Source of the DNA: Deltaproteobacteria bacterium
GTDB lineage: Bacteria; Desulfobacterota; Binatia; Binatales; Binataceae
Length of the DNA stretch: 53,623 bases
Direction of reading: 5' to 3'
NCBI GenBank assembly: GCA_021827495.1
Contig: JAKAVN010000004.1
Location: 1 to 53,623, forward strand
In this document: piece by piece, positions 7,436 to 41,406 of the stretch
How the letters are laid out: every line of letters begins with the position of its first letter
How positions within the stretch are numbered: the stretch's first letter is position 1
Position numbers and translations under genes: made by a program
Notes under the pieces: model-generated
Databases searched by the model: none
Told to the model about the DNA's origin: nothing
What the model saw: the letters and a program-made list of their open reading frames with translations, nothing else

Positions 7436-9256
7436 TTAGTTGGCGTTTATATCCGATGCCGGCCGCGAGGCGCGATCCTCGAGCGGCAATCGGATGCGCG
7501 CGGAAGTGCCTTGGTTTACCTTGGACGCGACGTCGAGCGTACCACCATGAAGGTCAACCGCGCGCAGTGCCAGGGGCAAGCCCACGCCGTTGCCGTCCTG
7601 CTTGGTGGTGAAATAGAGCTGGAAGATATCGTCCAGATGCTCGGGCGCAATTCCCTGCCCGGTGTCCGAGATGGAAAGCTCCACCCAGCCATCGACCAGC
7701 GCGCTGGCCATGGTCAGCGTGCCCCCCTTGGGCATCGCGTCGATGGCGTTTTGCACGATATTACGCAACGCTTCCATCAGCACCGCATGGTCGGCCTTGA
7801 CGAACGCGGCCGCCGGATCAAGCCGGCATCTGACCTCGATCAGCGGATCGTTCACCCCCTTGGCCACTTCACGCATAAGATCGTTGGCAGCAACCCGCTC
7901 GATTTTCAACTGTCCGGGCCGCATGAAGCGCATCAGCGCTTCGATCACCAGATCGATCCGGCTCATCTCCTCGCGCACCGCGTTGACGCGGGCTTCGACC
8001 GGCCTGGATTGGCGCGCGTCCTGGCTGAGCAGTTCGAGCTCGAGCGTGATCGCGTTGAGCGGATTGCGAATCTGATGGGCGACGCCGGAGAACAGCCCGC
8101 CGAGGCGCGCCAGGCGCTCTGAATTATCGACCACGCTTTCGAGCTGCTGAACCGGATCGAGATCGCGCACGATTACCATCTGCCCGGCGCGCGCGGGATC
8201 GCCGCCCAGCGGAAAGATTGAAACCAGCAGGCGCGACTTGTCCTTGCCGCGGCCTTCCTCGATCGCCACGTCGCGCAGCTCCGCGTTCGCCGCCCGCGCC
8301 GTGCGCACGACGGTGACCAGCGGATGGCGCTCGCCGATCAGCGCGGCGAGCGCCTTGCCCTGCGCGAGGCCGCCGGCCGGAAGTCCAAGGCGGTCCTGCG
8401 CATCGTGGTTGGAGAAGCGCACGATGCCGTCGCGGTCGAGCAACAGCACGGCGTCGTCGATCGAGCGAAAAATGTTGATGAAACGGCCGCGTTCGTCCTC
8501 CCACTGCACCCGGTCGGAGCGGACGCGATGCGACAGCTCGTTGAACTTCCTGGCCAGCGCGCTCAACTCGTCACGGCCGCGGATCAGCAAGTTGCCGGTA
8601 TCGCGGCCTGCGGCCAGCCGTTCAACCCCGGCGGTAATCGCGGCGACCGGCGCCAGCAACAGCGCGCCCGACAGCAGCGCGCCCAGCAGGCTCATCAGGA
8701 TGACCGCGGCCGCGACCAGCAGCACGTCGGCCACCGCGCGGTGAACCTCGGCGGCGACGAGCGCCGTCGACAGGCCGACCTTGATCAGCGCGAACGGCCG
8801 CTGGTTGATTTCGACCGGACTGCTGATCTCGTATACGTGGTCGCCCCACAGCGGACGGATTCGCGCGAGCGGCGACCATTGTTTGGCCGCCCGCTGCAGC
8901 TCCTCGAACGGGCGCGGCGGCGGGACGCTCACCGCATCACCGCTGGTTCCGGCCACCATCTCGCCGCCGAGGGTCACCACTCGCGCGTACACCACGGCCT
9001 TGCCGAAAGCGCGCGAGGAGGAAAGGAAGGCGGCGAGCGATGGATCCTCGCGCAGGCGCGCCACCGGGTCGCCCTGGCTATGCTCCAGCGTGGTACGAAT
9101 CTGCTCGAAGGTCTGGTTGACCAGCACGCTGCCCGAGTCGTTAAGGCTGTCGACCAACACGCGCGTCGCATGGTCGATCTCGGTGGCGCTGACCGCCAGT
9201 ACCGCGAGCACCAGCAGCGGGACGAAGATAGCGGCGATCTTGGTGCGCAGGCCCAT
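7436..9256 (-). CDS. Membrane sensor histidine kinase (2 TM, HAMP, PAS-like, HisKA, HATPase)
   Basis: HAMP (GRDELSALARKFNEL), H-box GVAHQIRNPL, N-box NIVQNAIDAM, G1 DTGQGI, FTTK and G2 GNGVGL. Confidence 0.93.
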   Translation of the reverse strand: MGLRTKIAAIFVPLLVLAVLAVSATEIDHATRVLVDSLNDSGSVLVNQTFEQIRTTLEHSQGDPVARLREDPSLAAFLSSSRAFGKAVVYARVVTLGGEMVAGTSGDAVSVPPPRPFEELQRAAKQWSPLARIRPLWGDHVYEISSPVEINQRPFALIKVGLSTALVAAEVHRAVADVLLVAAAVILMSLLGALLSGALLLAPVAAITAGVERLAAGRDTGNLLIRGRDELSALARKFNELSHRVRSDRVQWEDERGRFINIFRSIDDAVLLLDRDGIVRFSNHDAQDRLGLPAGGLAQGKALAALIGERHPLVTVVRTARAANAELRDVAIEEGRGKDKSRLLVSIFPLGGDPARAGQMVIVRDLDPVQQLESVVDNSERLARLGGLFSGVAHQIRNPLNAITLELELLSQDARQSRPVEARVNAVREEMSRIDLVIEALMRFMRPGQLKIERVAANDLMREVAKGVNDPLIEVRCRLDPAAAFVKADHAVLMEALRNIVQNAIDAMPKGGTLTMASALVDGWVELSISDTGQGIAPEHLDDIFQLYFTTKQDGNGVGLPLALRAVDLHGGTLDVASKVNQGTSARIRLPLEDRASRPASDINAN

Positions 9257-9293: not shown

Positions 9294-10769
<1,476 letters not shown>

Positions 10770-10785
10770 AGGTGACACTCGCGAT

Positions 10786-11094
10786 CTATAGAATGAGGCC
10801 CAGGGCATCGCCGATGAGCCTGAACGGCAACAGGATTATCGTCCCGATCGCGTGCGCCGTTGCGCCCAAGACACTGTCAGGCTCGTTCGACTGGGTCGTG
10901 GTCGTAGTGGTGGTCGTGGTCGGAGCCGGGGAATTTTCGGTTGCCGGATCGCCAGAGTCGGTCGTTACTGCTCCACCGTCGGTCCTGCTCACGCTGGTTG
11001 TCGTCGTGGTTCTTTCGCCGCTCGAACATCCCTGGGCCAGCACAACCGCACAGGATGCCAATGCGGCGGCGAATAACACTGCAAGCCGCTTCAT
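10786..11094 (-). CDS. Small Thr-rich hypothetical lipoprotein
   Basis: SD gaggagga; signal peptide with lipobox LAQGC; runs TTTTTSVS and APTTTTTTTTTQS; hydrophobic C-terminus (IGTIILLPFRLIGDALGLIL). Ends 17 nt before the response regulator start. Confidence 0.75.
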   Translation of the reverse strand: MKRLAVLFAAALASCAVVLAQGCSSGERTTTTTSVSRTDGGAVTTDSGDPATENSPAPTTTTTTTTTQSNEPDSVLGATAHAIGTIILLPFRLIGDALGLIL

Positions 11095-11758: not shown

Positions 11759-11788
11759 AATCGTGTAAGTGCTTGATTTATAAGCCTT

Positions 11789-11875
11789 GGAGGGGTGGCC
11801 GAGCGGTTGAAGGCACCGGTCTTGAAAACCGGCAGCGGCGCAAGTCGCTCGTGGGTTCGAATCCCACCCCCTCCG
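11789..11875 (+). tRNA. tRNA-Ser (anticodon TGA)
   Basis: Acceptor stem GGAGGGG/CCCCTCC plus discriminator G; D-arm TGGCCGAGCGGTTGAAGG; anticodon stem ccggt-cttgaaa-accgg; long variable arm agcggc-gcaa-gtcgct; T-loop GGTTCGAATCC. CCA not encoded. Confidence 0.97.
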
Positions 11876-12042
11876 TTCCTGAGTCCTCGACCTTGAGAAG
11901 TATCCGGCGAAGTCTGCGGCGCTTCGTGATGGATTCATGCTTGTACTCGCGCGCGATGCGCGCGCTCGCCAAGGCCAGTTTCGCTCCGCTCCACGTTATC
12001 CAGGCAATTGATGCAAAGATGCGGGATCGCGTAAGCCATGGC

Positions 12043-15143: not shown

Positions 15144-15309
15144 CCAGCGGCGGTCCCGGCGGTAGCCCGAGCCGCGCGGGCTTGCGATGACCGAGGCGAT
15201 GGCGTGTGGTACTCCTGTGAGAGCGAGGCCCTGTGGCTCCGTGCCGGAGGTGCTACGCCCGGGCGTTATGGACGCTCAGTTGCAGATCAATCTGACCAAC
15301 CCCGACCTA

Positions 15310-15444: not shown

Positions 15445-15547
15445 GGGTTGAGAGAGCGCTTACAACTGTCGGCAATAGTCTTTCTGTCCCAAGGGAAAAC
15501 CTCAGTCACCGGTCCGGCATCCATTGGGCGGTCGGATGAGAGGCGCC

Positions 15548-16576
15548 ATGATGCGGCACACGAAACTTGGAAAAAGCGGACTCACCATCTCGCGCATCGG
15601 CCTGGGATGCATGAGCTATGGCGACAAGCAGTCGCGCGAATGGCTGCTGAGCGAAGCCGAGGCGCGCGATCACTTCGCCCGTGCCTTGGAGGCGGGGATC
15701 AATTTTTTCGACACCGCCGACGTTTATTCCCTCGGCGCGAGCGAGCGGATAACCGGACGCTGGTTGGGCGAGATGGCCAAGCGCGACGATATCGTGGTCG
15801 CGACCAAGGTCTACGGCGCAATGGGCGGAGCCGGCCCGCACGGGTCCGCGCCTAATCGCAGCGGACTTGGCCGCAAGCACATCATCGAGGCCTGCGAGGC
15901 ATCGCTTAAGCGCCTGCGGATGGATTACATCGACCTCTACCAGATCCATCGCTGGGACTTCGGCACGCCGATCGAGGAAACCCTCGATGCGCTCGATGCG
16001 CTGGTGCGGGCCGGCAAGGTCCGCTACCTGGGCGCCAGCAGCATGGCGGCTTGGCAGTTCGCCAAGGCGCTGTTCATTGCCCGCGAAAACGGATGGCATC
16101 GGTTCGTCTCGATGCAGAATCATTACAACCTGGCCTACCGTGAGGAGGAGCGGGAGATGATCCCGTTGTGCATCGATCAGGGCGTAGGCCTGATTCCGTG
16201 GAGCCCGCTGGCGCGCGGCTTCCTGTCGCGCCCGCGCGAGGGCGCCAGCGCCGAGACGACTGCGCGGGCGCGCGACGACAAGTTTGCGCGATCGGTAGAG
16301 TACCAGCAATGTGACTTCGACGTGCTGGACGCGGTCAGCCAGGTCGCGAGAGCGCGCGGCGTCACCAACTCGCAGGTTGCGCTCGCCTGGGTCCTGCAGG
16401 CGCCTGGCGTCGACGCGCCGATCATCGGCAGTACCAAGCTGGCGCATTTGGACGAGGCGATCGCCGCGCTCGACCTGAAGCTGACGCGCGAAGAGGCCGC
16501 GGCGCTCGAGAAGCCCTATCGCCCCCATTCGATCCTGGGACACGAACAGCCCAAGCCCTCCCGCATGAGCAGATAG
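15548..16576 (+). CDS. Aldo/keto reductase
   Basis: LGKSGLTISRIGLGCMS, FFDTADVYSLG, VVATKV, IDLYQIHRWD, QNHYNL, PWSPLARG and PIIGST motifs. Confidence 0.95.
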   Translation: MMRHTKLGKSGLTISRIGLGCMSYGDKQSREWLLSEAEARDHFARALEAGINFFDTADVYSLGASERITGRWLGEMAKRDDIVVATKVYGAMGGAGPHGSAPNRSGLGRKHIIEACEASLKRLRMDYIDLYQIHRWDFGTPIEETLDALDALVRAGKVRYLGASSMAAWQFAKALFIARENGWHRFVSMQNHYNLAYREEEREMIPLCIDQGVGLIPWSPLARGFLSRPREGASAETTARARDDKFARSVEYQQCDFDVLDAVSQVARARGVTNSQVALAWVLQAPGVDAPIIGSTKLAHLDEAIAALDLKLTREEAAALEKPYRPHSILGHEQPKPSRMSR

Positions 16577-16724
16577 CGGAGCGCGCGCGTTGCGCACGCG
16601 GGCGGTGCGCAGGAGCGCGTGGTGGCCTGTTGCTCCAACTATCGGGCCCCAACGCGTCCACAGGGTTCCGCATTCTCACCGGTGCGGGTTTCCGGCCAAG
16701 GCCACGTCCATCCAAGGCTGTTGC

Positions 16725-16800
16725 GGCAACGCTCTACCGTGACCGCCATAAATTTGCCTTCTGTGCCATAAAGCGAACGGCGTTGGCGCTGCGTTTTGCC
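16725..16800. promoter_or_regulatory. Candidate enhancer sites upstream of the rfaH sigma54 promoter
   Basis: ggcaacgctctacc (16725-16738), ccataaatttgcc (16746-16758) and a TTTGCC half-site (16795-16800) resemble the GGwAA-n-TTTrCC boxes at 5140-5175. Confidence 0.35.
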
Positions 16801-16886
16801 GCGATTTTTCGCTCTTGGCGTGTCTTTTGTCGTTCTTCGATTATCCTCGAACAACATTCTTCGACGTAATCTCTCCCGGGCGCCGA

Positions 16887-16902
16887 TGGCATAAAAGCTG
16901 CT
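16887..16902 (+). promoter_or_regulatory. Sigma54 (-24/-12) promoter upstream of the rfaH-like gene
   Basis: TGGCATAaaagCTGCT has GG at 16888-16889 and GC at 16900-16901 (exact 12-nt offset). About 130 nt before ATG 17029. Confidence 0.7.
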
Positions 16903-17028
16903 CCTCCGTCCGGCGGTCGGAGGAGTTGTTAGTAGTTCCGCGCATCAGCCGGCGGCTCGGACAGAAACCGGAATGCGCGATCTGAAAACCCGGCTGACGG
17001 ATTTGCGAGAGGAAGAAGGGCGGGAATT

Positions 17029-17562
17029 ATGCCGCAGTGGCGTCTGATCCGGACCAAGTCAGGCAAGGAAAGGATGGTCGGAGAACAATTGGCCCTGAGC
17101 CTGCCGGAGGTGCTTCTGCCGCTGCTCAGGACCACGGTGCGCCGCTGGGGCAGGCCCGCCAAGACCGTGGCGCCGCTTTTCCCCTGCTATGTGTTTGCGC
17201 GTTTCGACCTCGGACCCGAATACGCCAGGGTCAGGTACAGCTCCGGAGTGCGCGAGCTGGTGCGCGCAGGTAATGAGCCCCTCGTGGTGCCGGAAGAAAT
17301 CATCGCGAAACTCAAACAGCGATGCGCCGCGGGCCCGGTCGAGCTTCCCGCGGTTACGCTGAAAAGTGGCGACTGCGTGCGGATCGTCGAAGGTCCCTTG
17401 AGGGGCCTCGAAGCGGTCTTTGAGCGCTACCTGTCGAGCGTTGAGCGGGTGGCGCTTCTAATGTCTTCGCTCGAGAAATTCACTCCGCGGGTCGTGCTGC
17501 GCGCGGAGGCCGTGGAACGGCTGTACCAGCCTCGAGAAAGCTTCCCGGTGGTTAGGTGGTAA
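17029..17562 (+). CDS. rfaH: NusG-paralog transcription antiterminator (RfaH/UpxY type)
   Basis: NGN domain (WRLIRTKSGKE, PLFPCYVFARF, VRYSSGV, PLVVPEEII) plus KOW (GDCVRIVEGPLRGLEAVF, ERVALLM). Heads a polysaccharide operon and an ops element follows. Confidence 0.85.
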   Translation: MPQWRLIRTKSGKERMVGEQLALSLPEVLLPLLRTTVRRWGRPAKTVAPLFPCYVFARFDLGPEYARVRYSSGVRELVRAGNEPLVVPEEIIAKLKQRCAAGPVELPAVTLKSGDCVRIVEGPLRGLEAVFERYLSSVERVALLMSSLEKFTPRVVLRAEAVERLYQPRESFPVVRW

Positions 17563-17612
17563 GGGGGGTTGGCGTGCAGTTGTAACCATGGATATCGGAG
17601 CAGTGATCTACA

Positions 17613-17680
17613 CGGCCCAAAGTGGCTATACGGCCAAGACTGGCTAAAGGACCAAGGCTGGCTAAACGAACGAGGCTAAC
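17613..17680. repeat. Degenerate 18-bp tandem repeat in the operon leader
   Basis: cggcccaaagtggctata / cggccaagactggctaaa / ggaccaaggctggctaaa, then a partial cgaacgaggctaac. Confidence 0.7.
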
Positions 17681-17874
17681 AAAAGGGCGAAGTATATAAA
17701 CCGGCCGAATATGCAGGCTGGCGATTGTTATTATAGCCGCTGGCTACTTTCATCGTGGGCCTCGAGCATGAGAGTGGACGCTGCTGAGTAAAGTGTGTGG
17801 CCGCGCTGGGATCGCGCAGGCGGTGTGTGTTCATAGGGACGAACGGTCGGGTTAGTCACACAAGATGTGGCGAG

Positions 17875-17886
17875 GGCGGTAGCTTG
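17875..17886 (+). promoter_or_regulatory. ops element (RfaH recruitment and pause site)
   Basis: GGCGGTAGCTTG is an exact match to GGCGGTAGnnTG. It is on the non-template strand, 82 nt before the first structural gene, and preceded by the hairpin gtcaca-caaga-tgtggc (17855-17871), as in JUMPstart elements. Confidence 0.8.
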
Positions 17887-17967
17887 AGCAAAATCAGGCG
17901 CCGCAAGCTAATCCGCAGGGCCTAAAGAGATCCGAGGAAACGACGAGCAGGAAATAGGAGAGGAGCC

Positions 17968-18486
17968 ATGAAAAAGTACGGTATCTGGGCGAGTGTTGTC
18001 ACGGTCATGCTGTTGGTTGCCTGGCCGGCGCTTGCGGCCAACGTCTCCGGCGTGGTCACCGACGCTGCGGGAAAGCCGGCCGCGGGAATCAAGGTGATGG
18101 CGCAGTCCACTGCGGGCAAGACCATACAGAGCGCGGTCTGCGGAACGCACGGCGAGTATGAGCTCACGGGCCTGCCAAGCGCGGATTATCACTTTGCGCT
18201 CGACCCCGGCAGCGCCGGATTCAAAAAGGGCGAGCCGGTCGGCGCCTTCGTGCCCGAAAAAGGCCTTACCTTGAACTGGGTGGTCTCGGCTTCCACTGAT
18301 CCAATCGCATACGCGCAGCCCGCGCTTGACGCTCAAGTCGCCGCCGGTGACCCCTTTGGCCTGACCATGGGCGAATTTATCGGGGTCTCGGCGCTGGCGA
18401 TGGCAGGCGCGGGGGGCGTCGCCGTCGGTGCGTATGGCGCGGCGGGCGGTTTCGGCGGCGGTCAGACGGCCAGCCCCTCGAAATGA
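17968..18486 (+). CDS. Secreted carboxypeptidase-regulatory-like (prealbumin-fold) domain protein with Gly/Ala-rich C-terminal membrane segment
   Basis: SD aggag; signal peptide ending PALA; VSGVVTDAAGKPAAGIKV...THGEYELTGLPSADY pattern; hydrophobic tail FIGVSALAMAGAGGVAVGAYGAAGG followed by GGGQTASPSK. Confidence 0.75.
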   Translation: MKKYGIWASVVTVMLLVAWPALAANVSGVVTDAAGKPAAGIKVMAQSTAGKTIQSAVCGTHGEYELTGLPSADYHFALDPGSAGFKKGEPVGAFVPEKGLTLNWVVSASTDPIAYAQPALDAQVAAGDPFGLTMGEFIGVSALAMAGAGGVAVGAYGAAGGFGGGQTASPSK

Positions 18487-18573
18487 GCGCGTCCTGCGCC
18501 GGTCGCTGGACTGCGAGGGCGTACGTTGGGGCGGCCGGTTGGGAGAGCGAATGCCAGGCCGTGAGGTTGTGCC

Positions 18574-19833
18574 ATGAGTGAATGGCGGATAGGCAATCGG
18601 ATACGGCGGCGATGCGCTGAATTCATCGCTGGCGAGCTGGCGATCGCGCTCGCCCTGAGCGTAGCGTCATGCGCCACACGCCAGACTCCTGCTGCCGGGG
18701 CCGGGGCGCAGGAGGCCCGGTCCGAAACGTTCGCGCGGCCTTCCGCCGCTTCGCAGGCGGCGCCGCCGTTTGACGCTTCGGACAGCTCGCGGCTCAAGGC
18801 GCTCTGGCAGGAACGGACCAGCGATAGCTTCGGGTCGGATTTCTCACTCGGTCCCGGCGACGTCTTGGAAATCTCGGTTCCGCTCGAGGAACTCGAGCAT
18901 CGCGAGGTCCGCGTCTCGCCGCGCGACACCATCACCCTGCCACTGGTTGGTGTGATGCAGGTCAAGGGTCTGACCGAAGAGGGTTTGACCGACGCCTTGC
19001 GTGAGCGCCTTTCCAGGTACATGTACGATCCGCCGGTTTCCCTCTTCGTCAAGCATTACGGCAGCAGACAGGTCGCCGTGGTTGGCGCGGTCGACAAACC
19101 GGGGCTTTACACGTTGACCAGCGGGTCGGACACGCTGATGGAGATGATCAGCAAGGCCGGCGGGACCACCAAGGACTCGGCTACCAACGTCATTTTCGTG
19201 CCCGCGGAGAAAAATCGCGTGGGGCTGCAGAGCGCCAATCTCATCGGCGTGGCGCAGTCATCTTTCACCGATGCGCCCGGTAGCTCCGCCCGCTTCGCTG
19301 GCCGTGATAGTCAAGCCGAGGTTGGCAGGGTCGGGCCGGTTCTCGCCGGCGCCGCCGAGCCGCCCGCGCTGCAGCATGGCCGCTTGCCAGGCTTGTCCGC
19401 CGCGGCGGTCGCCAAGCTCCATCCAATCGTCATCAGCATGAGCGACCGCGGCGCGCAGGCCTATCTCGAGATGCCGGCGCGGCCGGGCGACGTTCTGCTG
19501 ATTCCCGCGGCCGGCGAAGTCACCGTCGGGGGCTGGGTACAAACCCCAGGGGCCTACAAGGTTACGCCGGGGATGACGGCGCTGAGCGCGATCTCGGCCG
19601 CGGGTGGCGCGATGTTCAGTTCCGCGGCCGAAGTCCTGCGCACCGGGGCAAGCGGCGAGCGTCTCAGTATCCCGGTCGATATTTCCAAGGTGCAGAGCGG
19701 CGAACAGAGTGATGTCGCGATGCAATCGGGGGACGTGGTGATGGTGGACCAGTCGGCGGCCGGGGTGATTCCCTATGCCGCGTACGAAGTCTTTTCGAAA
19801 TTCGGATCGGGCCTGATGTTTCCAATACCCTGA
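18574..19833 (+). CDS. wza: Polysaccharide export outer-membrane lipoprotein (Wza/OPX; Poly_export + SLBB)
   Basis: Lipobox VASC; FSLGPGDVLEISV; ITLPLVGVMQVKGLT; VAVVGAVDKPG; VGGWVQTPGAY SLBB repeats. Confidence 0.9.
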   Translation: MSEWRIGNRIRRRCAEFIAGELAIALALSVASCATRQTPAAGAGAQEARSETFARPSAASQAAPPFDASDSSRLKALWQERTSDSFGSDFSLGPGDVLEISVPLEELEHREVRVSPRDTITLPLVGVMQVKGLTEEGLTDALRERLSRYMYDPPVSLFVKHYGSRQVAVVGAVDKPGLYTLTSGSDTLMEMISKAGGTTKDSATNVIFVPAEKNRVGLQSANLIGVAQSSFTDAPGSSARFAGRDSQAEVGRVGPVLAGAAEPPALQHGRLPGLSAAAVAKLHPIVISMSDRGAQAYLEMPARPGDVLLIPAAGEVTVGGWVQTPGAYKVTPGMTALSAISAAGGAMFSSAAEVLRTGASGERLSIPVDISKVQSGEQSDVAMQSGDVVMVDQSAAGVIPYAAYEVFSKFGSGLMFPIP

Positions 19834-19860: not shown

Positions 19861-22236
19861 TTGCCTGAACTATCTCCATATTTCATCGAGCGGCTGCGCG
19901 TGCAGGACGGCGTCGCGATGAGTCGCGGCCCGGCGACCATGGCGGCGGACGATCAGCCAGCGCTGCGCGAATACTGGCAAATCATCCGCCGGCATCTGAC
20001 GCTGATTATCACCATCGTGGCCTGTACGCTGCTGGTCTCAGGAGTGGCGGTATTTGTCATCACGCCGGCCTACACGGCTAGCGCGGTGATTCTTATCGAG
20101 CCGCAGGCTCCACAGGTGCTCGATATTAAGCAGCTGATGGTCGAGCCGCCGAGCGGACATGAATACGATTTCTACAAGACGCAATTCGCGCTCCTGCAAA
20201 GCCGCAGCCTCGCGGCGCAGGTGATCCACGACCTGGGACTGCAGGCCGACCCGCTTTTCGGCGGCGCGAATCAGCCGCAAGGGCTGCTCGCGGCGCTGGG
20301 GTCGCAATTCAGAGTCTGGATCAGCGGACCGCGCTCCGCTGCGACGAGTCCGGGCGCGGCTGATGCGACCGAAAGCCTCGGCATCGGATCGCGAGCCGTG
20401 AATGCCTACCTGCGCCATCTGAGTATTCAGCCTGAATTCGGCACGCGCCTGGTCCGAATCTCCTTCACTACGCCGAATCCAAAACTGTCCGCCGTGGTGG
20501 CCAATGCCCATGCCGCGGCCTATGTTCGCCAGGGCATGGACCTGCGGGCCAGGGCCACCGAGGCTGCCCAGCGCTTCCTCGAAGGCAAGCTGGTGGAACT
20601 CAGTGAGCGGGTCGAGAAGTCGGAGGCTGCCCTGAACAGCTACCGCCACGACAAGGGGATCGTGGAGTTCACCACTAATGGCAAGAATGAAATCCTGCTC
20701 AGGCGGTTGGAAGACCTCAACAGCGCGCTGACTCGGGCCGAGACCACAAGGATCAGCCTGGAATCGCAGGCCGATTTGATCGGCAAGGGCGACTATTACT
20801 CGATGCCCGCGGTGGTTGGCAGCCCGATGGTGCAGGCGCTCAAGCCGCAGCTCGCCGCGCTCGAGGCCCAGTACGCGAGCATGTCGAGCCGTTACACACC
20901 GGCCTATGAACCGCTGGCGGCGCTCAAGGCGAAACTCGACGACACCCGTGAGCAGATCAAGCAGACCGTCACCCAGATTGTCACCAGCGTCAAGCTTCGG
21001 TACCAAGCGGCGGCGGCGCGGGAAAACGAGCTTGGCCAGGAAATTGACCATGAGAAGGCGCGCGCACTGGCGCTCAACGATGCGTCGCTGAAAGACGCGA
21101 TCCTCGCGCGCGAGGTCGACACCAACCGGCAATTATACGAGAGCGTGCTGAAGCGTATGAAGGAGATGGGAGTGGCGGCCGCAGTCCGCGCCTCCAACGT
21201 GTCGCTGGTCGATCAGGCCGCTCCGCCCGCTTTTCCCTCCAGTCCCCGCAAAACCCTGCTGATACTGCTGAGCACGTTGCTGGGTTTGGGTGGGGCGCTG
21301 GGTTTGGCCTTTGTGCTGGAATACCTTGACGATACGCTCAAGACGCCCGAAGAGGTTGAACGGCTGCTGCGGCTTCCCAGCCTCGCCTTCGTGCCCGATA
21401 TGCGTGGCGTGCAGAACGGGAACCATCGGGCCCACTTGGAACTCGCCGCGGTCCCGCCGAAGTTGCCCGCAAAGTTGCAGGCGAACGGCACAGCGGCCAA
21501 ATCCGAACGCGATGGAATGCGGCAGCGGACGGCGCTGGCCTCGGCGCGCGAGGCCTATCGCACCATCCGCAGCCAGATTCTGCTTTCGCGCGCCGGCGGT
21601 CCGCCCCGCACCGTTCTCATAACCAGCGCGGTGGCCGAGGAAGGCAAGTCGATCACGGCGGTGAATACGGCGATCACGTTCGCCCAGAAGGGCCGGCGGG
21701 TGGTTCTGATCGACGCCGATCTGCGCCGGGCGCGATGCCACGAGCTGCTCAGGTGCGACAGCCGCCAGGGGCTGTCGGAAGTCCTCACCGGCGAGGCGGC
21801 GCTGGATGATGCGGTAATCGAGACCGGGGTCAGCAACCTCTTTCTGCTCAGCGCCGGCGCCGTCCCGCCGGATCCCCCGGAGCTGCTGGGTTCCACCAGG
21901 ATGGACGAGGTTCTCGCCGAACTTGGGAGCCGCTTTCAGCACATCATAATAGATTCCGCCCCGGTAATGCCGATCAGCGACTCGATAGTGCTCTCGCGGC
22001 ACGTCGATGGGGTGGTCGTCGTCGTAGGCCGGACGACCCCGAAGCAACTCGTAAGGCGTGCATGCATGCGTATCGGCGATGCCGGGGCAAAACTCCTGGG
22101 AGTAGTGCTGAATCAGGTCAGTGCGCATCACGCAAGTTACAACCCCTACGGCAGCTACTACTATTACCATGATCGGGATTCAGCCTCCCGTGGCGCCGAT
22201 GGCGCCGATAATCAAGCCAAAATAGTCTTCAACTGA
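19861..22236 (+). CDS. wzc: Polysaccharide co-polymerase / tyrosine autokinase (Wzc/GumC)
   Basis: Two TM segments flanking a coiled-coil domain; AREAYRTIRS; Walker A AEEGKS; IDADLRR; IIIDSAPV; C-terminal Tyr cluster YNPYGSYYYYH. Confidence 0.93.
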   Translation: MPELSPYFIERLRVQDGVAMSRGPATMAADDQPALREYWQIIRRHLTLIITIVACTLLVSGVAVFVITPAYTASAVILIEPQAPQVLDIKQLMVEPPSGHEYDFYKTQFALLQSRSLAAQVIHDLGLQADPLFGGANQPQGLLAALGSQFRVWISGPRSAATSPGAADATESLGIGSRAVNAYLRHLSIQPEFGTRLVRISFTTPNPKLSAVVANAHAAAYVRQGMDLRARATEAAQRFLEGKLVELSERVEKSEAALNSYRHDKGIVEFTTNGKNEILLRRLEDLNSALTRAETTRISLESQADLIGKGDYYSMPAVVGSPMVQALKPQLAALEAQYASMSSRYTPAYEPLAALKAKLDDTREQIKQTVTQIVTSVKLRYQAAAARENELGQEIDHEKARALALNDASLKDAILAREVDTNRQLYESVLKRMKEMGVAAAVRASNVSLVDQAAPPAFPSSPRKTLLILLSTLLGLGGALGLAFVLEYLDDTLKTPEEVERLLRLPSLAFVPDMRGVQNGNHRAHLELAAVPPKLPAKLQANGTAAKSERDGMRQRTALASAREAYRTIRSQILLSRAGGPPRTVLITSAVAEEGKSITAVNTAITFAQKGRRVVLIDADLRRARCHELLRCDSRQGLSEVLTGEAALDDAVIETGVSNLFLLSAGAVPPDPPELLGSTRMDEVLAELGSRFQHIIIDSAPVMPISDSIVLSRHVDGVVVVVGRTTPKQLVRRACMRIGDAGAKLLGVVLNQVSAHHASYNPYGSYYYYHDRDSASRGADGADNQAKIVFN

Positions 22237-22283: not shown

Positions 22284-25094
22284 GTGAAGCGGTCGGCGAA
22301 AACTGCAACTTTCCTGCGGTGGGCGATTGTCTTGCTCGTAGTCCTGGCTCCGCTACCCGAGGGGTCGGCATATCCGTGGGCGCTGCCGCTCATCGAGGTG
22401 CTGGTGTTTGGGCTGGTCGCCGTCGGGGTATTAGCGGTCGCGCTTGGAAATGAACGGCCGGCGCTGTTGTCGCGTGGCCGTCCCTTGGCCCTTCCCGTGC
22501 TTTTGTTTGTGGCCCTGGTGATGCTGCAAATCGCTCCGCTCCCACCGCGCCTCCTCAGGATCGTTTCGCCTGCCACCCACCGGCTCTATGAGTTGAGCCT
22601 GCCCGGATGGCCGCGCGAGCATTCCGGCCAAGTTCTGACGGTACACGCCGCGCAAAGGGAACTGCCGCAATGGAGGGTTCTGCCGACGGCGGATGAGATT
22701 GCCGGCGGGGCGCAGATGCCTTTTGCGCCCAGCAGCGGGCGGACGACGGCCGGGGGCTCGGTGCGGCGTGTTGCAAACGGCGCACCGGCCTCGATGCGGT
22801 GGCGTCAGCTTTCGATCGCTCCGTCGATGAGTAAGCGAGTACTGCTTGAACTCGTTGCCTATGCTGGGCTGTTCTTCCTGATACTCCTTTATCCATTTGG
22901 ATCCGCTGGTATTGGAACGGAAAGACGCGTTTACCGATCTATCGTGATGGCCGTGCTGCTGGGCGGCCTGATTGTCGCCGTCGTAGGTATAATTGAGTTC
23001 TTCACATGGAACGGCAAAATTCTGTGGTTGTTCGTCCCCTATGATTGGGGAGCGCCGGCGCCGGGCGCGCTGTCCCGTGCGGTCGGCCCCTTCGTCAATC
23101 CCGACCATTTCGGTGATTATCTGGCGCTGGTTCTGCCGCTCGCGGTTGGCGAAGCGCTGTTTCGTTCGGACTTGTTTTCCAGGCAACGCGCCTTTCGCGT
23201 CTTCTGTGCCGTTACGTCTTTTCTGATCTTGTGTGCTCTGCTGCTCAGTCTCTCGCGCGCAGCCTGGATTGGCGCCGCGATCGCGCTGGCCCTGCTGTTT
23301 GCGCTATCGGCGCGAATGCCGCAAACCGCGCGGCCGCGCCTCCTGAGCTTTGAGCATGGAACGCTGCCGCGCCGCGCGGGCGTGCTGGCCTTCGCGGTGA
23401 TCGCGCTTTCTCTGCTCTTTATTGGCCCGGAGGGCCGCAGGCAGGTCGACCTGCGCTTGCAGCAGACAGTGTCCAACGACACCGGGTTCGGCGGCCGGTT
23501 CGAACTTGCCGCGGACACACTCGCGATGGCGCGAGACTATCCCGCCTTTGGGGTTGGTCTTGGTTGCTGGCCGGAGTTGTTCCCGCACTACCGCCGTCCG
23601 CCCTGGAGCGCGGTGATGTACCGCGAGGTCCATAACGATTACGCGCAGCTCTTGGCCGAGACGGGTATTGTTGGCTTCGCGCTGGCCGCCTGGTTCTTCG
23701 TTGCGATAGGGCGCCGTCTCTACCGCGCGCTTGCGCAGCGCGCCACGCCGGTTTCTCCCACCCTCGCCGCAGTATGCGCGGCCCTCGCGGTAGTGGCGTT
23801 TCACGAATTTTTCGACTTTAGCCTGCATACCCCGGCCAACGCTGTGCTCTTCACCGTGTTGCTGGCACTGGCGCTTCGGATGGCAGGTGGGCCGAGCCAG
23901 GATCGCCGGAGCTCTTTCTCGGCTGGTCCGGGACTCCGTATGGTGAGCGCCGGCTGCGTTGCGGCCCTTGCCGTAACGCTAATCGTCTTCGCCTTGCGGC
24001 AGGAAAAAATTCCCTACCCCCACAATATCAACCCGCCGGACTCGGCGGCCGGCGCGCAAGCCCTGATCTACGCCCATCCGGCAGAGTCCGCGCCACATCG
24101 GGACCTGGTCCAACTTGGCGCCAAGCAACTCTCCACTCGGCAGCGTGTCAAGGAACTGCGCGCCGCGGTCTGGCTTGATCCGACGAACCCCTACGCCCGC
24201 GACGCCTATGTGCGGGCGCTCCTTCGACAAGGGATGACCGCGCAGGCGCTCAATGACCTCACCCGATCCGTCCTCGCGTCGCCCTCGCTCTCGACGCACG
24301 CTTATCTGAGCGGCCGGCTGATCCCCTGGCTATCCGCCGCGGAGAAGCAAGCGGTTGAAAAGGGCTTCAAGCAGGCGGTCGCACGCCGGTACGACGGTGC
24401 GGTGCAAGGCCTCGCAGCTTTCTATGTCGCGCTCGGCCGCTTTGCCGACGCCGGAGACCTCTATCGTCGAGCGGCTGGAGACCAACGCGATTCCGACCTC
24501 CGCGAGCAGTATCTGGTTGGCGCCGGCGTTTCATACGCGCAGTCGGGAGATTTGGAAAACGCCCGAAAATGTTTTGACTGGGCGATCCGCAATGATCCGG
24601 CCGACGTTCGCCCCTATCAGTATCTGGCGACAATGGTTTTTGGGCCGCGGCACGAGCTCACGGCCGCGCGCAATATGGTCGCCCAGGGCGTCCGCGCGGG
24701 CGCGGACGGTTCGGCGCTATACGAGGCGCTTGCGCAGGCGGCCCAAAGCGACGGCGACGCGCAGATCACGGAGAGCGCGCTGCGCGACGCGGTCAACGCA
24801 CAGCCAACCTTCACGGCGCTCTTTCGTTTGGGAATGTTTTACCTGGGCGAGAGGAAATACGATCGCGCGGCGCTGACGATACGCCGCGCGGCCGAGGCCG
24901 ACCCGCGCTCGGCCGAGGCCTATTTCTATCTGGGCGTGGCCGAGGAAAGCGGCTACCGATTCTCCGCGGCGGAAAGGGATTTTGCGTGGGCCGTGCGGCT
25001 GGCGCCCACCAACGCTGGTTACCGGGCCCATTACCTCGACTTCGAGCACAGGGTTGCGCAAAGCATCAGGAATTCTCCGCCTTTGAACGAGTAG
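22284..25094 (+). CDS. O-antigen ligase (Wzy_C) family membrane protein with C-terminal TPR domain
   Basis: About 12-13 TM segments; GPFVNPDHFGDYL; LLSLSRAAW; FGVGLGCW; EVHNDYAQLLAETGIVG; DFSLHTPAN; TPR-like helical repeats in the last ~300 aa. Confidence 0.85.
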   Translation: MKRSAKTATFLRWAIVLLVVLAPLPEGSAYPWALPLIEVLVFGLVAVGVLAVALGNERPALLSRGRPLALPVLLFVALVMLQIAPLPPRLLRIVSPATHRLYELSLPGWPREHSGQVLTVHAAQRELPQWRVLPTADEIAGGAQMPFAPSSGRTTAGGSVRRVANGAPASMRWRQLSIAPSMSKRVLLELVAYAGLFFLILLYPFGSAGIGTERRVYRSIVMAVLLGGLIVAVVGIIEFFTWNGKILWLFVPYDWGAPAPGALSRAVGPFVNPDHFGDYLALVLPLAVGEALFRSDLFSRQRAFRVFCAVTSFLILCALLLSLSRAAWIGAAIALALLFALSARMPQTARPRLLSFEHGTLPRRAGVLAFAVIALSLLFIGPEGRRQVDLRLQQTVSNDTGFGGRFELAADTLAMARDYPAFGVGLGCWPELFPHYRRPPWSAVMYREVHNDYAQLLAETGIVGFALAAWFFVAIGRRLYRALAQRATPVSPTLAAVCAALAVVAFHEFFDFSLHTPANAVLFTVLLALALRMAGGPSQDRRSSFSAGPGLRMVSAGCVAALAVTLIVFALRQEKIPYPHNINPPDSAAGAQALIYAHPAESAPHRDLVQLGAKQLSTRQRVKELRAAVWLDPTNPYARDAYVRALLRQGMTAQALNDLTRSVLASPSLSTHAYLSGRLIPWLSAAEKQAVEKGFKQAVARRYDGAVQGLAAFYVALGRFADAGDLYRRAAGDQRDSDLREQYLVGAGVSYAQSGDLENARKCFDWAIRNDPADVRPYQYLATMVFGPRHELTAARNMVAQGVRAGADGSALYEALAQAAQSDGDAQITESALRDAVNAQPTFTALFRLGMFYLGERKYDRAALTIRRAAEADPRSAEAYFYLGVAEESGYRFSAAERDFAWAVRLAPTNAGYRAHYLDFEHRVAQSIRNSPPLNE

Positions 25095-25150: not shown

Positions 25151-26413
25151 ATGCGTATTCTGCACCTTGGCATTAACTATTGGCCGGATGAAACCGGAAT
25201 CGCGCCATTTGCCACGGGTCGATGTGAGTATCTCGCGGCCCAGGGACACGAGGTGGTAGCCTGCACCGGGTTCCCGTTTTACCCCCAATGGCGCGTGCCC
25301 GGCCAATACCGCGGCCGCCTGTTCTCGCGCGATCAACACGAGAGCGTCCGCATTCTCCGTTCGTGGATGTACGTTCCGCGCAGCCTCACGCCGCTCAGGC
25401 GGATCATCCACGAGAGTTCCTTCGTCTGTTCATCGCTGCTGCGCGCGCTCGGCAGTGCTCGGCCCGACCTTCTGTTCGTGACCTCGCCGCCGCTCGGGCT
25501 CGCCGCCAGCGCGATCGCACTCAGCACCCTGTGGCGCGTGCCCTACGTATTGCATGTTGCCGACCTTCAGCCTGACACGGCCGTGGATTTGAAGATGCTG
25601 CGCCGGGAACCGGTGATTCGAGCGCTCTATCGCCTGGAGGCCGCCGCCTACCGTAACGCCGCGCTGGTTTCGACGCTTACCGAGGCGATGCGCCGGCGGA
25701 TCATCGCCAAGGGAGTGCCGCCCGGGAAAGTGGCGCTCTTTTCCGATTGGGTGGACCCGCAGCTTTTCTCTATCGGCTTGCCCGAGAAGACCCGCCGAGT
25801 TGCTCCGGACTCGCCCTTCATCGTTGCCCATTTCGGGAACATGGGGGTCAAGCAGGGTCTTGAAGTCGTGCTCGAGGCCGCCAATCTTTCGCGTGGCGGT
25901 CCGGGAATAAGCTATCTGCTGGTCGGCGACGGTGCGGCGCGGCCCTTTTTGGAAGCGCGGGCGCGCGCACTCAACCTGCCAAATCTTCGCTTGCTTCCGC
26001 TTCAGCCCCGCGCGCGCTTTCTCGAGCTGCTGGCGCAATCGGACGTCTGCCTGGTCACGCAGCAGCGCAGCGTCGCCGACATCGTATTTCCTTCCAAGGT
26101 GATCACGCTGCTCGCGGCGGGCCGTGCGGTGATCGGCTCGCTCAGTCCGGGGAGCGAAGTCGCCCGGGTATTGAGCGAGTCCGGCGCCGGTATCACGGTC
26201 GCGCCCGAAGACCCGCGCGCGCTGGCCGATGCCGTCATGCGGCTGAGCACTGATCCGTCGCTGCTGGTGCAAAGAGGACGCGCGGGGAGGGCCTACGCCC
26301 TTGATCGGTGGGAACGCGAGGCTGTCCTGAAAGCGACGGAGCAGAAACTGGCGGGCGTCTTCGACCGCAAGCTGGCGCCGGCCGGCGTCTCCGGCGCGGC
26401 CGACGTTGACTAA
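25151..26413 (+). CDS. Glycosyltransferase family 4 (WcaI-like)
   Basis: MRILHLGINYWPDETGIAPF, VACTGFPFYPQW, HFGNMGVKQGL and FPSKVITLLAAGRAVI motifs. Confidence 0.9.
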   Translation: MRILHLGINYWPDETGIAPFATGRCEYLAAQGHEVVACTGFPFYPQWRVPGQYRGRLFSRDQHESVRILRSWMYVPRSLTPLRRIIHESSFVCSSLLRALGSARPDLLFVTSPPLGLAASAIALSTLWRVPYVLHVADLQPDTAVDLKMLRREPVIRALYRLEAAAYRNAALVSTLTEAMRRRIIAKGVPPGKVALFSDWVDPQLFSIGLPEKTRRVAPDSPFIVAHFGNMGVKQGLEVVLEAANLSRGGPGISYLLVGDGAARPFLEARARALNLPNLRLLPLQPRARFLELLAQSDVCLVTQQRSVADIVFPSKVITLLAAGRAVIGSLSPGSEVARVLSESGAGITVAPEDPRALADAVMRLSTDPSLLVQRGRAGRAYALDRWEREAVLKATEQKLAGVFDRKLAPAGVSGAADVD

Positions 26414-26430
26414 ATGAAAAGGAGCCATTC

Positions 26431-27432
26431 ATGAAAAAGGTGCTGGTTACCGGCGCTGGGGGGTTCATCGGACATCATCTGGTTCGCTACCTCAAGGATC
26501 GGGACTACTGGGTGCGGGGCGTGGATATGAAGCACTCTGAATACGAGCCCAGCCTTGCGGACGAGTTCGTATTGCTCGATTTGCGGCGTATCGACCATTG
26601 CCTCGAAGCGACCCGCGGCGTGCAGGAGGTCTACGCGCTGGCCGCCGATATGGGCGGAATGGGCTTCATCTCGTCACATCACGCGCAGATCCTTCGTGAC
26701 AACTCGCTGATCAATATCCATACGCTGGAGTCGGCCCGGCAAAACGGCGTCGAGCGCTACCTCTACTGCTCCTCGGCCTGTGTATATCCCGAGTATCGCC
26801 AGACGGCGGCTGAGGTGGCGCCGCTGCGCGAGGAAGATGCGTACCCGGCGCAGCCACAGGATGCGTATGGCTGGGAAAAGCTGATTACTGAGCGGCTATG
26901 CACGCACTATCGCGAGGATTATGGACTCGAGACCCGCATCGTGCGCTTCCATAACATCTTTGGGCCGCTCGGCACATGGCAGGGCGGGCGTGAGAAAGCG
27001 CCGGCCGCGATATGCCGCAAGCTTGCAGCCGCCAAGCTCAGCGGGAATCACGAGATCGAGATCTGGGGCGACGGCGAGCAAACCCGTTCCTTCTGTTATA
27101 TCGACGACTGCGTAATCGGAATCCACAAGCTGATGCGCTCGGATTACCGCGCGCCGCTCAATCTGGGCCAGGACCGGCTGATCACGATCAACCAGCTGGT
27201 CGACATGGCCGCGGCGATCGCCGGCATTCGCATCGTCAAGCGCCACGTCGAAGGGCCGCAGGGCGTGCGCGGCCGCAACTCCGACAACACGCGTTTGCGC
27301 CAGGTGCTCGGCTGGGAACCGCAAATTAGCCTCGAAGAGGGCCTCGCCAGAACCTATCGATGGATCGAAGCGCAGGTTCGCAATGCGGATGCGCCAATGC
27401 GCGCGCATCCGGGCCTGGCCGGCGCCGTCTGA
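26431..27432 (+). CDS. NAD-dependent epimerase, GDP-mannose 3,5-epimerase-like
   Basis: VTGAGGFIG, LAADMGGMGFI, SSACVYP, DAYGWEKL, RFHNIFGP, GGREKAPAAICRK, IWGDGEQTRSF and GVRGRNSDNT match the GME-like subfamily. Confidence 0.88.
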   Translation: MKKVLVTGAGGFIGHHLVRYLKDRDYWVRGVDMKHSEYEPSLADEFVLLDLRRIDHCLEATRGVQEVYALAADMGGMGFISSHHAQILRDNSLINIHTLESARQNGVERYLYCSSACVYPEYRQTAAEVAPLREEDAYPAQPQDAYGWEKLITERLCTHYREDYGLETRIVRFHNIFGPLGTWQGGREKAPAAICRKLAAAKLSGNHEIEIWGDGEQTRSFCYIDDCVIGIHKLMRSDYRAPLNLGQDRLITINQLVDMAAAIAGIRIVKRHVEGPQGVRGRNSDNTRLRQVLGWEPQISLEEGLARTYRWIEAQVRNADAPMRAHPGLAGAV

Positions 27433-27492
27433 GCGGCGCGCCGGAATTCGTCCGCATCAGCCGATCGCCCACGCGAGATCCCTCTTCCGCCG

Positions 27493-30290: not shown

Positions 30291-30517
30291 GGCACGGCTC
30301 AAAAGCGCAGACGTGAGCAGGGTGCAAAAGAACGCTACGCGAGGCGCCGCCGGTGCTATTCGTGGCGCTGCACAGCGCAGAGCAGCATACGAAGTGTGCG
30401 GCGCTTCTGAAAGCGGCCGACTATGCCCTCTACGACCCTGAAAGGCCAACCTGTGGATGGCATGCCTTTGGATGACAAGGTCTTCGCGGCACCCCAGACG
30501 CAATCAAGGTTCGCGCG

Positions 30518-31876: not shown

Positions 31877-31902
31877 CGCCTTGCTTTTGGATGACGTCTT
31901 GC
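31870..31902. repeat. 15-bp direct repeat at the wzx stop
   Basis: tggatgacgccttgc (31870-31884) and tggatgacgtcttgc (31888-31902), one mismatch. Confidence 0.6.
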
Positions 31903-31979
31903 CTGCGGTTCAGAATTTCGCCCTCCCCGTGCCTGTTCGCGTCTATGGAAAGTGAGGAAGGGGTTAAGGGAGCGAGCAA

Positions 31980-32912: not shown

Positions 32913-32963
32913 ACCGTTGCCGTTGGTGAACCTTCTCTGCACGGTCAAGAAAAGTCGCCGCGA

Positions 32964-35518: not shown

Positions 35519-35535
35519 ACACCCCCGGCTGCACC

Positions 35536-36348: not shown

Positions 36349-36357
36349 AAGGCATCG

Positions 36358-40257: not shown

Positions 40258-40338
40258 GCTAATAACTGAGCGTTGAAATAGTGTTTTACCAGCACCCGGC
40301 ATCGCTAACGGCAGATCCCCCGCTGATTATTCCGTGTT

Positions 40339-41109: not shown

Positions 41110-41364
41110 GCGCGAGCGAATGTGTTTACGCGCTTGGCGCCATCAGCGCCTCGATCTCGAAAATGACGAAGCGACGCTGTTCAAGTCCGCCGCGCTCGGC
41201 GTCGAGAAAGTGGCCCATCGGTCCATGGTTGTTGACCTGAACAAGCTGCTCGCCGCGCCGCGGACCGGAGCGCACACGGTCGCCCCGACCTACAATCTGG
41301 TGACGAACGGAGTATTGACCTTTGTAAGCGTCCACTAATCGCGAGCATTGGTCCGATTGGATTA

Positions 41365-41406
41365 CGGGCGTGGGGCGCGTTGGCGCTCCACGCCCGGTTT
41401 GTTTTC
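41365..41406 (+). terminator. Intrinsic terminator at the end of the polysaccharide operon
   Basis: 14-bp stem cgggcgtggggcgc / gcgctccacgcccg with a 4-nt loop, followed by gtttgttttc. Confidence 0.8.

Follow-up and report, generated by a model that had tools for sequence, protein, structure and literature searches.

An ops-type element between an RfaH-like NusG paralog gene and a polysaccharide operon in Candidatus Binataceae

We describe an element related to operon polarity suppressor (ops) in a stretch of 53,623 nucleotides, which we call the window. The element, GGCGGTAGCTTG, lies in the non-coding leader between a gene for an RfaH-like paralog of NusG and a long polysaccharide cluster. 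Our favoured interpretation, held with some reserve, is that a cis-encoded and probably non-autoinhibited RfaH-like factor loads at this ops-type pause and hairpin site. The factor would then carry RNA polymerase (RNAP) through the 24-kb operon. Judging by sequence comparisons, elements of the ops/JUMPstart kind seem to go with RfaH/UpxY-like paralogs encoded in cis, in three or more phyla outside the Proteobacteria. This indication is new, as are the lineage and a family-wide element with a variable loop.

The element and the adjacent RfaH-like gene

The element is found at positions 17875-17886 of the + strand, which is the non-template strand. It comprises a C3:G8 stem, a GGTA loop and a TG pause dinucleotide at positions 11-12. 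All 12 positions agree with ops (GGCGGTAGnnTG), and there is no other full match in the 53.6 kb. The initial annotation of this DNA had located the 12-mer correctly; GGCGGTAGCTTG, present as a single exact copy in the window, is 313 nt past the paralog stop codon and 82 nt before the ATG at 17968. The E. coli consensus GGCGGTAGNNTG is matched once, against 0.09 matches expected, and 9 of 100 shuffled sequences contained at least one match. By arithmetic from base composition, the chance of a coding-strand match within the leader is about 1e-3.

The leader itself (17563-17967, + strand) spans 405 nt between the paralog gene and the first structural gene and contains no credible open reading frame (ORF). 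Its 3' 280 nt are strongly conserved, with 87% mean column identity among three loci whose proteins are 77-96% identical. A TTAGTCACAC box at 17852-17861 (+) is invariant in these three orthologous leaders (the window and the loci L081 and L082). It resembles a TGTAAGTCACA box that directly adjoins the GGCGG core in Terriglobia, but itself stands 13 nt before the core. Between the paralog and the ops-like site, an 18-nt tandem repeat (17608-17677, +; about 3.4 copies, core TGGCTAAA) is kept in L081, the 96% ortholog, and degraded in L082, the 77% ortholog. The array may provide regulator binding sites. Elsewhere in the window, a second GGCGGTAGC (GGCGGTAGCCCG) occurs in non-coding DNA at 15158-15169 (+), about 365 nt before an aldo-keto reductase gene (15524-16576). 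This match lacks both flanking boxes and the TG at positions 11-12, and with about 0.5 such matches expected per strand it is probably due to chance.

The paralog gene (17029-17562, +) encodes 177 amino acids with NGN and KOW domains. PF02357 (NusG NGN) is the sole Pfam domain detected, at 52 bits. Among NCBIfam families the ranking is RfaH, UpxY, LoaP, then NusG, each under its curated cut-off. The top family, TIGR01955 (RfaH), scores 83.4 bits against a cut-off of 144.5, and the RfaH equivalog NF006534 scores 65.4 against 124. The values are 55.9 against 100 for UpxY (NF033644), 41 against 125 for LoaP (NF033641) and 34.9 against 135.7 for housekeeping NusG (TIGR00922). The top match in the PDB is E. 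coli RfaH (E = 1.8e-10), with an alignment free of gaps through residue 64.

Autoinhibited RfaH has an α-helical KOW domain packed on the NGN domain and an E48-R138 salt bridge. Autoinhibition needs E48 (PMC7593976). Base-specific contacts with ops are made by K10, H20, R23 and R73; Q24 lines the T6 pocket and R16 is near G4 (PMC5995543). The initial annotation had looked to the ops-contacting residues for support, which they do not give; of five, K10 alone is kept. In the alignment to 2oug and 5ond, the others read H20Q, R23L, Q24S and R73S (window residue S72). The same alignment gives R16M, and the E48 position is alanine.

We built an AlphaFold2 model of the paralog with a 121-sequence family alignment. 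The mean predicted local distance difference test (pLDDT) score was 86.9. The C-terminal domain (CTD) is predicted as a five-strand β-barrel KOW (pLDDT 79-89), a prediction that is compatible with fold switching. In Foldseek searches the model matched active, RNAP-bound RfaH over its full length (8phk_P, with a template modelling score of 0.60-0.64; 6c6s_D). Autoinhibited RfaH (2oug, 5ond, 8pfg) was matched through the N-domain only. Given the scores under cut-off, the replaced contact residues and E48, and the predicted β-KOW, the paralog is, as judged by sequence and model, RfaH-like and not canonical RfaH. Loss of the T6 pocket (H20, R23, Q24, R73) and of E48, together with the β-KOW prediction, means that it is probably not autoinhibited. 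Its way of reading the loop probably also departs from that of E. coli RfaH, or else it depends mostly on the pause and on its own synthesis nearby.

These properties bear on whether the locus could be a canonical E. coli-type system, in which an autoinhibited, fold-switching RfaH reads G5 and T6 and acts in trans on several ops sites. The 12-mer fits GGCGGTAGnnTG at every specified position, and RfaH is the best-scoring family. However, both equivalog cut-offs are missed and H20, R23, Q24, R73, R16 and E48 are all replaced. Furthermore, the KOW domain is predicted in the β form, T6 is not kept in the closest ortholog and there is a single full ops site in 53.6 kb. We regard a canonical system as very improbable.

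Other classes describe the protein better. It has an NGN and a single KOW domain, is distinct from housekeeping NusG and adjoins a 24-kb same-strand cluster, as expected for specialised NusG paralogs. It also has the predicted β-CTD, the missing ops residues and the position less than 1 kb from an operon longer than 5 kb that mark monomorphic cis-acting RfaH proteins, a class that rests on a preprint and on predictions (PMC13015549). RfaH proper is encoded by a stand-alone gene and acts in trans; the window paralog is encoded 405 nt upstream of its presumed target.

Occurrence of the element in Binataceae and other phyla

All close relatives of the window paralog come from Candidatus Binataceae metagenome-assembled genomes (MAGs), many labelled "uncultured delta proteobacterium". 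Hence, the host belongs to Binatota, an uncultured phylum, and is not a gammaproteobacterium, in line with the non-enteric origin claimed at the outset. The window DNA is present in mine-drainage and sediment metagenomes.

Two orthologous contigs, L081 and L082, share the gene order of the window. At the leader position of the window element, L081 (whose protein is 96% identical) carries GGCGGCAGCTTG and L082 (77% identical) carries GGCGGTAGCGTG, an exact copy of the waaQ-type sequence of E. coli. T6, which is C in L081, is the flipped-out and specifically recognised base of E. coli ops. The search of orthologous leaders proposed in the initial annotation therefore has a divided outcome: the site is kept in place but T6 itself is not conserved. 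Nor is the exact enterobacterial ops the conserved form, as T6 is C in the 96% ortholog and the family majority has AC at positions 6-7. Three further orthologs (L083, L085 and L087; 64-68% identical) keep the paralog next to a gene for a CarboxypepD_reg-domain protein. They have neither the polysaccharide operon nor the element. Hence, presence of the element tracks presence of the operon. L087 (65% identical, without operon or element) was the single new locus from a metagenome scan for close orthologs.

We extended the comparison to 80 species-representative Binataceae loci, with paralogs that are 48-58% identical. The pattern GGCGG..GC.TG gave 45 gene-strand matches against 12 on the opposite strand. 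For GGCGGACGC the numbers were 47 on the + strand and 4 on the - strand. This sequence was located 100-1400 nt past the paralog stop codon in 32 of the 80 loci, where composition predicts 1.5, and none of these cases was on the - strand. The dominant form is (A/C)CGGGAT-GGCGGACGC-(A/G)T(G/T). Together with the alignment of three leaders, these counts support an ops-like site that is conserved, and specific in strand and position, across the family. The consensus is GGCGG-NN-GC-N-TG; ops positions 1-5 and 8-9 are invariant, T11-G12 is usually kept and the loop at 6-7 is variable. The C3:G8 pair is architecturally required in ops (PMC5995543). Because the loop varies across the family, the TA of the window is, on this alignment, a clade-specific variant that coincides with the enterobacterial one.

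In the majority gene order, the paralog is followed 3 nt later by an ORF of 188-190 codons. An intergenic region and a Wza-like exporter gene (about 1050 amino acids; Poly_export and multiple SLBB domains) come next. In the aligned majority intergenic regions, a conserved sigma70 promoter (TTGAC-N17/18-TATAAC) precedes the element by about 190 nt. The element keeps a strict orientation, and 130-170 nt separate it from the Wza start downstream. A second invariant block, TTTAGCTATCATGG, is found about 100 nt past the majority element, before the exporter gene. This non-coding block, CTTTCTTTAATCG..ATTTTAGCTATCATGG, is at about 6410-6425 of L026 and at the corresponding position of some 25 Binataceae loci. 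A conserved ATG in the majority block GCTATCATGG was considered as the Wza start codon and rejected, as it is out of frame in most loci.

This arrangement raises the question of whether the element is a duplex-DNA promoter element or operator, bound by a transcription factor or an alternative sigma factor, with a coincidental likeness to ops. Besides the strict orientation and the distance of 130-170 nt to Wza, the majority sequence TGGCGGACGC[A/T]TGC resembles a sigma54 -24/-12 site with spacing one nucleotide short. Similarly, the 18-nt direct repeats of the window leader are typical of regulator sites. However, the putative -12 (TGC) is the least conserved part, with GTT, ATT and GCG variants, while GGCGGACGC is invariant. 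The spacing is GG-N9-GC and not N10, and the versions in the window, L081, L082, L048 and Nitrospirota have no TTGC. In the majority loci the element is downstream of a strong conserved sigma70 promoter, and the same core accompanies NusG paralogs in three phyla with differing promoters. We consider a duplex-DNA role improbable.

The loop variants follow protein clades. Within Binataceae, GGCGGTAGCCTG occurs in L048 and GGCGGAAGCCTG in L001 and L052. L003, L065 and L105 have the variant GGCGGCAGCG, placed some 225 nt ahead of the start codon of the paralog itself; with L075 included, the element precedes the paralog start by 225-300 nt in four loci. Clades in which the loop is AC have W16, Q20 and Y-F-(D/E)-V-K-Y at E. 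coli positions 66-71, so that position 68 is acidic. Position 68 is a DNA contact in E. coli RfaH. Clades with TA, CA or AA loops have M, A, S, R or Q at position 16 and mostly R or L at 68. The L048 and L001 paralogs have R at the H20 and R73 positions. The apparent correlation between residues and loop is a lead, confounded with phylogeny. Four Binataceae MAGs each contribute two paralog loci, which makes paralog-specific addressing of operons conceivable.

More distant paralogs, from Nitrospirota and Terriglobia, were obtained from the metagenome scan. In Nitrospirota, exact GGCGGTAGCCTG is 77-193 nt past the paralog stop codon in 5 of 7 loci, at a G+C content of 39-58%. These sites, each preceded by ATGTAACCCTGAAT, are L113 4483-4494, L114 1901-1912, L167 3600-3611, L168 1416-1427 and L170 3691-3702. 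They stand before ABC-2/Wzt polysaccharide-transporter or nucleotide-sugar genes. The paralogs concerned are 56-100% identical among themselves and score 104-111 bits on TIGR01955; AlphaFold2 predicts a β-KOW. K10, T72 and R73 are kept but H20, R23, Q24 and E48 are not. In L170, a perfect inverted repeat some 90-110 nt long (2819-2927) lies just upstream of the paralog gene; it produced spurious matches to miRNA families in Rfam.

In Terriglobia (Acidobacteriota; L115-L166), where NCBI names the paralogs "UpxY family", a related and very strongly conserved TGTAAGTCACA-GGGCGGAGCT element accompanies the paralog genes. In 35 of 50 loci, TGTAAGTCACA-GGGCG(G/A)AGCT-NNN-TG precedes the paralog start by 45-115 nt, with 39 matches on the + strand against 2 on the - strand. 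This element looks like ops with T6 deleted and a JUMPstart-like upstream box. An upstream box followed by a GGCGG core is common to E. coli (CTGTTAAGCCAGG-GGCGGTAGCGTG), Terriglobia (TGTAAGTCACAG-GGCGGAGCT) and Nitrospirota (ATGTAACCCTGAAT-GGCGGTAGCCTG). The E. coli JUMPstart used for this comparison was verified and is 73 nt upstream of rfbB. The Terriglobia element had no match in Rfam, and no paper in the literature library searched contained any of the three element sequences.

These data also settle whether a G+C-rich 12-mer could resemble ops by accident in a genome of 63% G+C. The degenerate family pattern GGCGGNNGCNTG is indeed not rare in the window (2 observed, 2.35 expected), and matches with at most two mismatches are at chance level (9 against 6.5 expected). 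However, orthologs have the element at the same position, the 80 loci show an extreme bias of strand and position, and in three independent clades, AT-rich Nitrospirota among them, the exact consensus is found again immediately after paralog genes. A chance origin is refuted.

RNA structure, transcript architecture and proposed mechanism

The element could act as RNA. It might form part of a leader structure or hairpin bound by the paralog in the manner of LoaP, or of a factor-independent antitermination RNA. Several observations fit. In the PDB search, a 'NusG-RNA complex' (8f5g) scored close to RfaH (40.2 against 44.2 bits). In the window, ops could pair as the 5' arm of a possible 11-bp hairpin at 17876-17904 (+), with UCAGGCGCCGC as the 3' arm. 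The majority GGCGGAC can pair with a downstream GUCCGCC block, and the second invariant block, located about 100 nt further on, hints that the functional leader is longer.

Tests of structure did not support this. For the window hairpin, RNAalifold on the three window-clade leaders counted 0 compensatory changes, 4 one-sided changes and 4 broken pairs, and the region folds no better than shuffled sequences (z = 0.07). Among 22 majority leaders the sole consensus pairing was weak (-5.5 kcal/mol); the 3' partner varies while the element is invariant, and no pairs are compensatory. The Rfam JUMPstart family (RF01707) was not matched even at E <= 10 in window positions 16500-18100 or in eight related loci. 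A gathering-threshold Rfam scan of the whole window returned tRNA-Ser alone, and permissive scans of the leader and of the eight loci gave no relevant family. We therefore dropped the conserved RNA hairpin, for lack of compensatory changes and for folding at shuffle level. The 'JUMPstart-like hairpin' of the initial annotation fails for the same reasons and for its missing Rfam match. The LoaP score is low, and the invariant positions coincide with the ones on which the DNA hairpin and the pause of E. coli ops depend. The element sequence is more conserved than any pairing partner. Hence, constraint appears to act on the sequence itself, which favours recognition by protein or RNAP over a simple RNA stem. 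Action as RNA seems unlikely to us.

Upstream of the paralog, a sigma54-type -24/-12 promoter is predicted at 16887-16902 (+), 127 nt before the ATG. The sequence is TGGCATAAAAGCTGCT (TGGCAT-N5-CTGCT; GG-N10-GC); the sigma54 consensus is TGGCAC-N5-TTGCW with GG-N10-GC spacing. The site is conserved as TGGCGCAAAAGTTGCT in L082, TGGTC[T/C]GGAAGTTGCT in L083-L086 and CGGTCTGAAAGTTGCT in L087. Elsewhere in the family the site is not widespread: 12 of 83 loci have it, where a reverse-complement control gave 4. The site would function as a sigma54 promoter. On the opposite strand, 6 kb upstream, are genes for a histidine kinase (HAMP-HisKA-HATPase; 7436-9256, -) and an NtrC-type sigma54 activator (9294-10808, -). 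By linkage alone, this pair is a candidate for control of the promoter. Site and activator are in keeping with the sigma54 control first suggested for the locus. A sigma54 activator also directly follows the paralog module in L083, and another is nearby in L169 (Nitrospirota). The ops-type element, about 970 nt from the sigma54 site, would be promoter-proximal; the hly leader has a comparable promoter-to-ops distance (PMC6775461).

A scan of 16500-18600 for promoters and terminators found no sigma70 promoter and no terminator within the 405-nt gap. Hence, it is plausible that paralog and operon are co-transcribed, as a feed-forward circuit. Candidate promoters picked by eye in the gap (TGTTATTAT extended -10; TATAAA) were rejected, as they are not conserved in L081 and L082. 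Most related loci differ in having the conserved sigma70 promoter between the regulator unit and the element, and hence a promoter of the element's own. Upstream, a terminator-like hairpin with a T-run (16784-16811, +) would close the aldo-keto reductase transcript.

We propose the following sequence of events, in analogy with E. coli, where pausing, loading and antitermination have been described (PMC5995543, PMC7819879). Briefly, the paralog gene would be transcribed from the sigma54 promoter at the head of the polysaccharide operon of about 24 kb. GGCGGTAGCTTG would be the local version of an ops-type element, GGCGG-NN-GC-N-TG with upstream boxes, that marks paralog-adjacent polysaccharide leaders. 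RNAP would pause at T11/G12, and the exposed non-template strand would fold into the C3:G8 mini-hairpin. The NGN domain of the paralog may load there. It would then ride with the polymerase and keep off housekeeping NusG and Rho, with less pausing across the long operon.

Several points weigh against this interpretation. Four of the five side chains that recognise ops in E. coli (H20, R23, Q24 and R73) are gone from the window paralog, and T6 is C in an ortholog 96% identical. About half of the Binataceae paralog loci have no element within the DNA examined. Monomorphic RfaH homologs acted independently of ops in E. coli (PMC13015549). Together with the missing contact residues, this means that the element might not be read by the paralog at all. 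The β-KOW prediction alone cannot prove that the paralog never switches fold, and an internal promoter may exist inside the 405-nt gap. Expression data are sparse. Three mine-drainage metatranscriptomes from the same study contained nothing from the window locus, which also counts against the proposal. Two peat/soil metatranscriptomes yielded a few low-depth contigs on the paralog and Wza genes of a related locus, L006, and none on its leader. The L006 paralog and its Wza gene are therefore expressed, but the contigs cover genes only.

The genes downstream were assigned by domain and family searches. As initially reported, the regulator is directly upstream of a long polysaccharide operon. After the 405-nt gap, a same-strand series of genes continues without interruption to about 41.1 kb and includes a Wzx/Wzy cluster of about 24 kb. 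The first gene (17968-18486, +), preceded by a strong Shine-Dalgarno sequence (GGAGAGGAG), encodes a small secreted CarboxypepD_reg-domain protein. A Wza-type exporter (18574-19833, +), a Wzc tyrosine autokinase/co-polymerase (19861-22236, +) and a Wzy/O-antigen-ligase-TPR protein (22284-25094, +) follow. The rest of the cluster (25151-41109, +), presumed to be a target of processive transcription, encodes GT4/GT2 glycosyltransferases, an epimerase, an initiating sugar transferase, a Wzx-type flippase and several methyltransferases. The distal glycosyltransferase/methyltransferase part (32000-42000) has a G+C content of 0.57-0.60, against 0.63-0.66 for the rest, consistent with a horizontally exchanged variable region. 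Lower G+C is typical of acquired genes prone to silencing by Rho.

Throughout the window clade (17968-18486 here; L083 6579-7127; L085 6622-7152), the paralog has the CarboxypepD_reg protein, with its Gly/Ala-rich C-terminus, as its regular partner downstream. Its gene follows the paralog in L081-L083, L085 and L087, and also in L003, L065, L105 and L106. As the partner is kept even where no polysaccharide genes follow, the two genes seem to form a module. The tRNA-Ser gene (anticodon TGA; 11788-11876, +) is the only RNA gene found in the window by the gathering scan. Finally, a 43-nt stretch within the paralog gene (17168-17210), encoding a conserved PLFPCYVF motif, matches contigs of 100-330x depth in mine-drainage DNA runs. 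These derive from another, far more abundant organism in the same samples, which presumably has a paralog of its own.

Relation to known systems and wider meaning

The E. coli RfaH/ops pair (GGCGGTAGnnTG) is the obvious reference. The window paralog has the same NGN and KOW domains, and its best match in sequence and fold is RfaH. The element shares G1-G5, G8-C9 and T11-G12 with E. coli ops. It is likewise on the non-template strand of a 5' leader, 82 nt before the first polysaccharide gene (73 nt at E. coli rfbB). Unlike E. coli rfaH, which is unlinked from its targets, the window regulator is encoded beside its target. The protein also departs from E. coli RfaH in having none of H20, R23, Q24, R73, R16 and E48, and a predicted β-KOW rather than an α-helical CTD. 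The Binataceae loop at 6-7 is mostly AC, not TA, and the strong Shine-Dalgarno sequence of the first gene sets the window apart from E. coli ops operons.

According to the initial annotation, use of ops is not known among paralogs encoded in cis. That overlooked PrfaH of IncX plasmids, an RfaH paralog that is encoded in cis, transcribed together with its long target operon and an activator of it; both the ops-like site of PrfaH and the key residues on its DNA face differ from those of RfaH (PMC11880322). In the window the regulator is similarly encoded in cis, with an ops-like site of its own and key residues that again differ from those of RfaH. The IncX site is upstream of the prfaH ATG, whereas the window site is downstream of the regulator gene. 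In addition, the PrfaH host is enterobacterial and the target is a type IV secretion/conjugation operon.

Predicted monomorphic RfaH homologs, described in a 2026 bioRxiv preprint, are encoded next to long operons (PMC13015549). The window paralog resembles these β-RfaH homologs in its AlphaFold2 β-CTD, its loss of some ops-binding residues and its location less than 1 kb from an envelope-polysaccharide operon. Unlike ops-independent members of that class, the Binatota gene is accompanied by a conserved ops-like element, which argues that the site is still used. IncX PrfaH is thus the closest precedent for the arrangement and the monomorphic clade the closest for the type of protein.

Other comparisons are looser. 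Like Bacteroides UpxY, the paralog is encoded in cis at the head of a polysaccharide operon, would act in the 5' leader and belongs to a family with several paralogs per genome. Unlike UpxY, it scores well below the family cut-off and no UpxZ-like partner was identified; the Terriglobia "UpxY" relatives carry their own GGGCGGAGCT element. The 39-bp JUMPstart (RF01707) of gamma-proteobacterial polysaccharide clusters also has an upstream box and then a GGCGG(T)AGC core, and the box in the window resembles it loosely. Unlike JUMPstart, the window leader lacks the Rfam match, the upstream GGTAGC repeat and the stem, and its box is displaced. LoaP of Firmicutes is likewise a NusG paralog encoded in cis for the leader of a long operon. 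It binds an RNA hairpin, whereas no RNA structure is supported here.

It is acknowledged as an open question how specialised NusG paralogs encoded in cis locate their operons. In the published view, ops recognition and autoinhibition arose late (PMC7593976). In Binatota, Nitrospirota and Terriglobia, our comparisons place ops-type elements next to paralogs in which the E. coli contact residues are missing and autoinhibition is predicted to be absent. Hence, they suggest that the ops-type DNA signal is older and more general than its E. coli read-out. More tentatively, and with real doubt, we propose that this signal (a pause and a non-template hairpin with a GGCGG core) may be ancestral, as a loading site, to the whole RfaH/UpxY-like branch of NusG paralogs across bacterial phyla. 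It would be older than both autoinhibition and the T6 pocket. The loop nucleotides (TA, CA, AA, AC and a 3-nt GGA) would co-evolve with NGN positions 16, 20, 68 and 73, and in a genome with several paralogs each one, encoded in cis, would address only its own polysaccharide operon. An ancient DNA signal would bear on the late-origin view of ops recognition (PMC7593976). The natural variants (TA, CA, AA, AC and a one-base deletion), each with a defined protein clade, offer a test set for recruitment in vitro. The element also supplies a practical annotation rule for regulated exopolysaccharide leaders in uncultured soil phyla.

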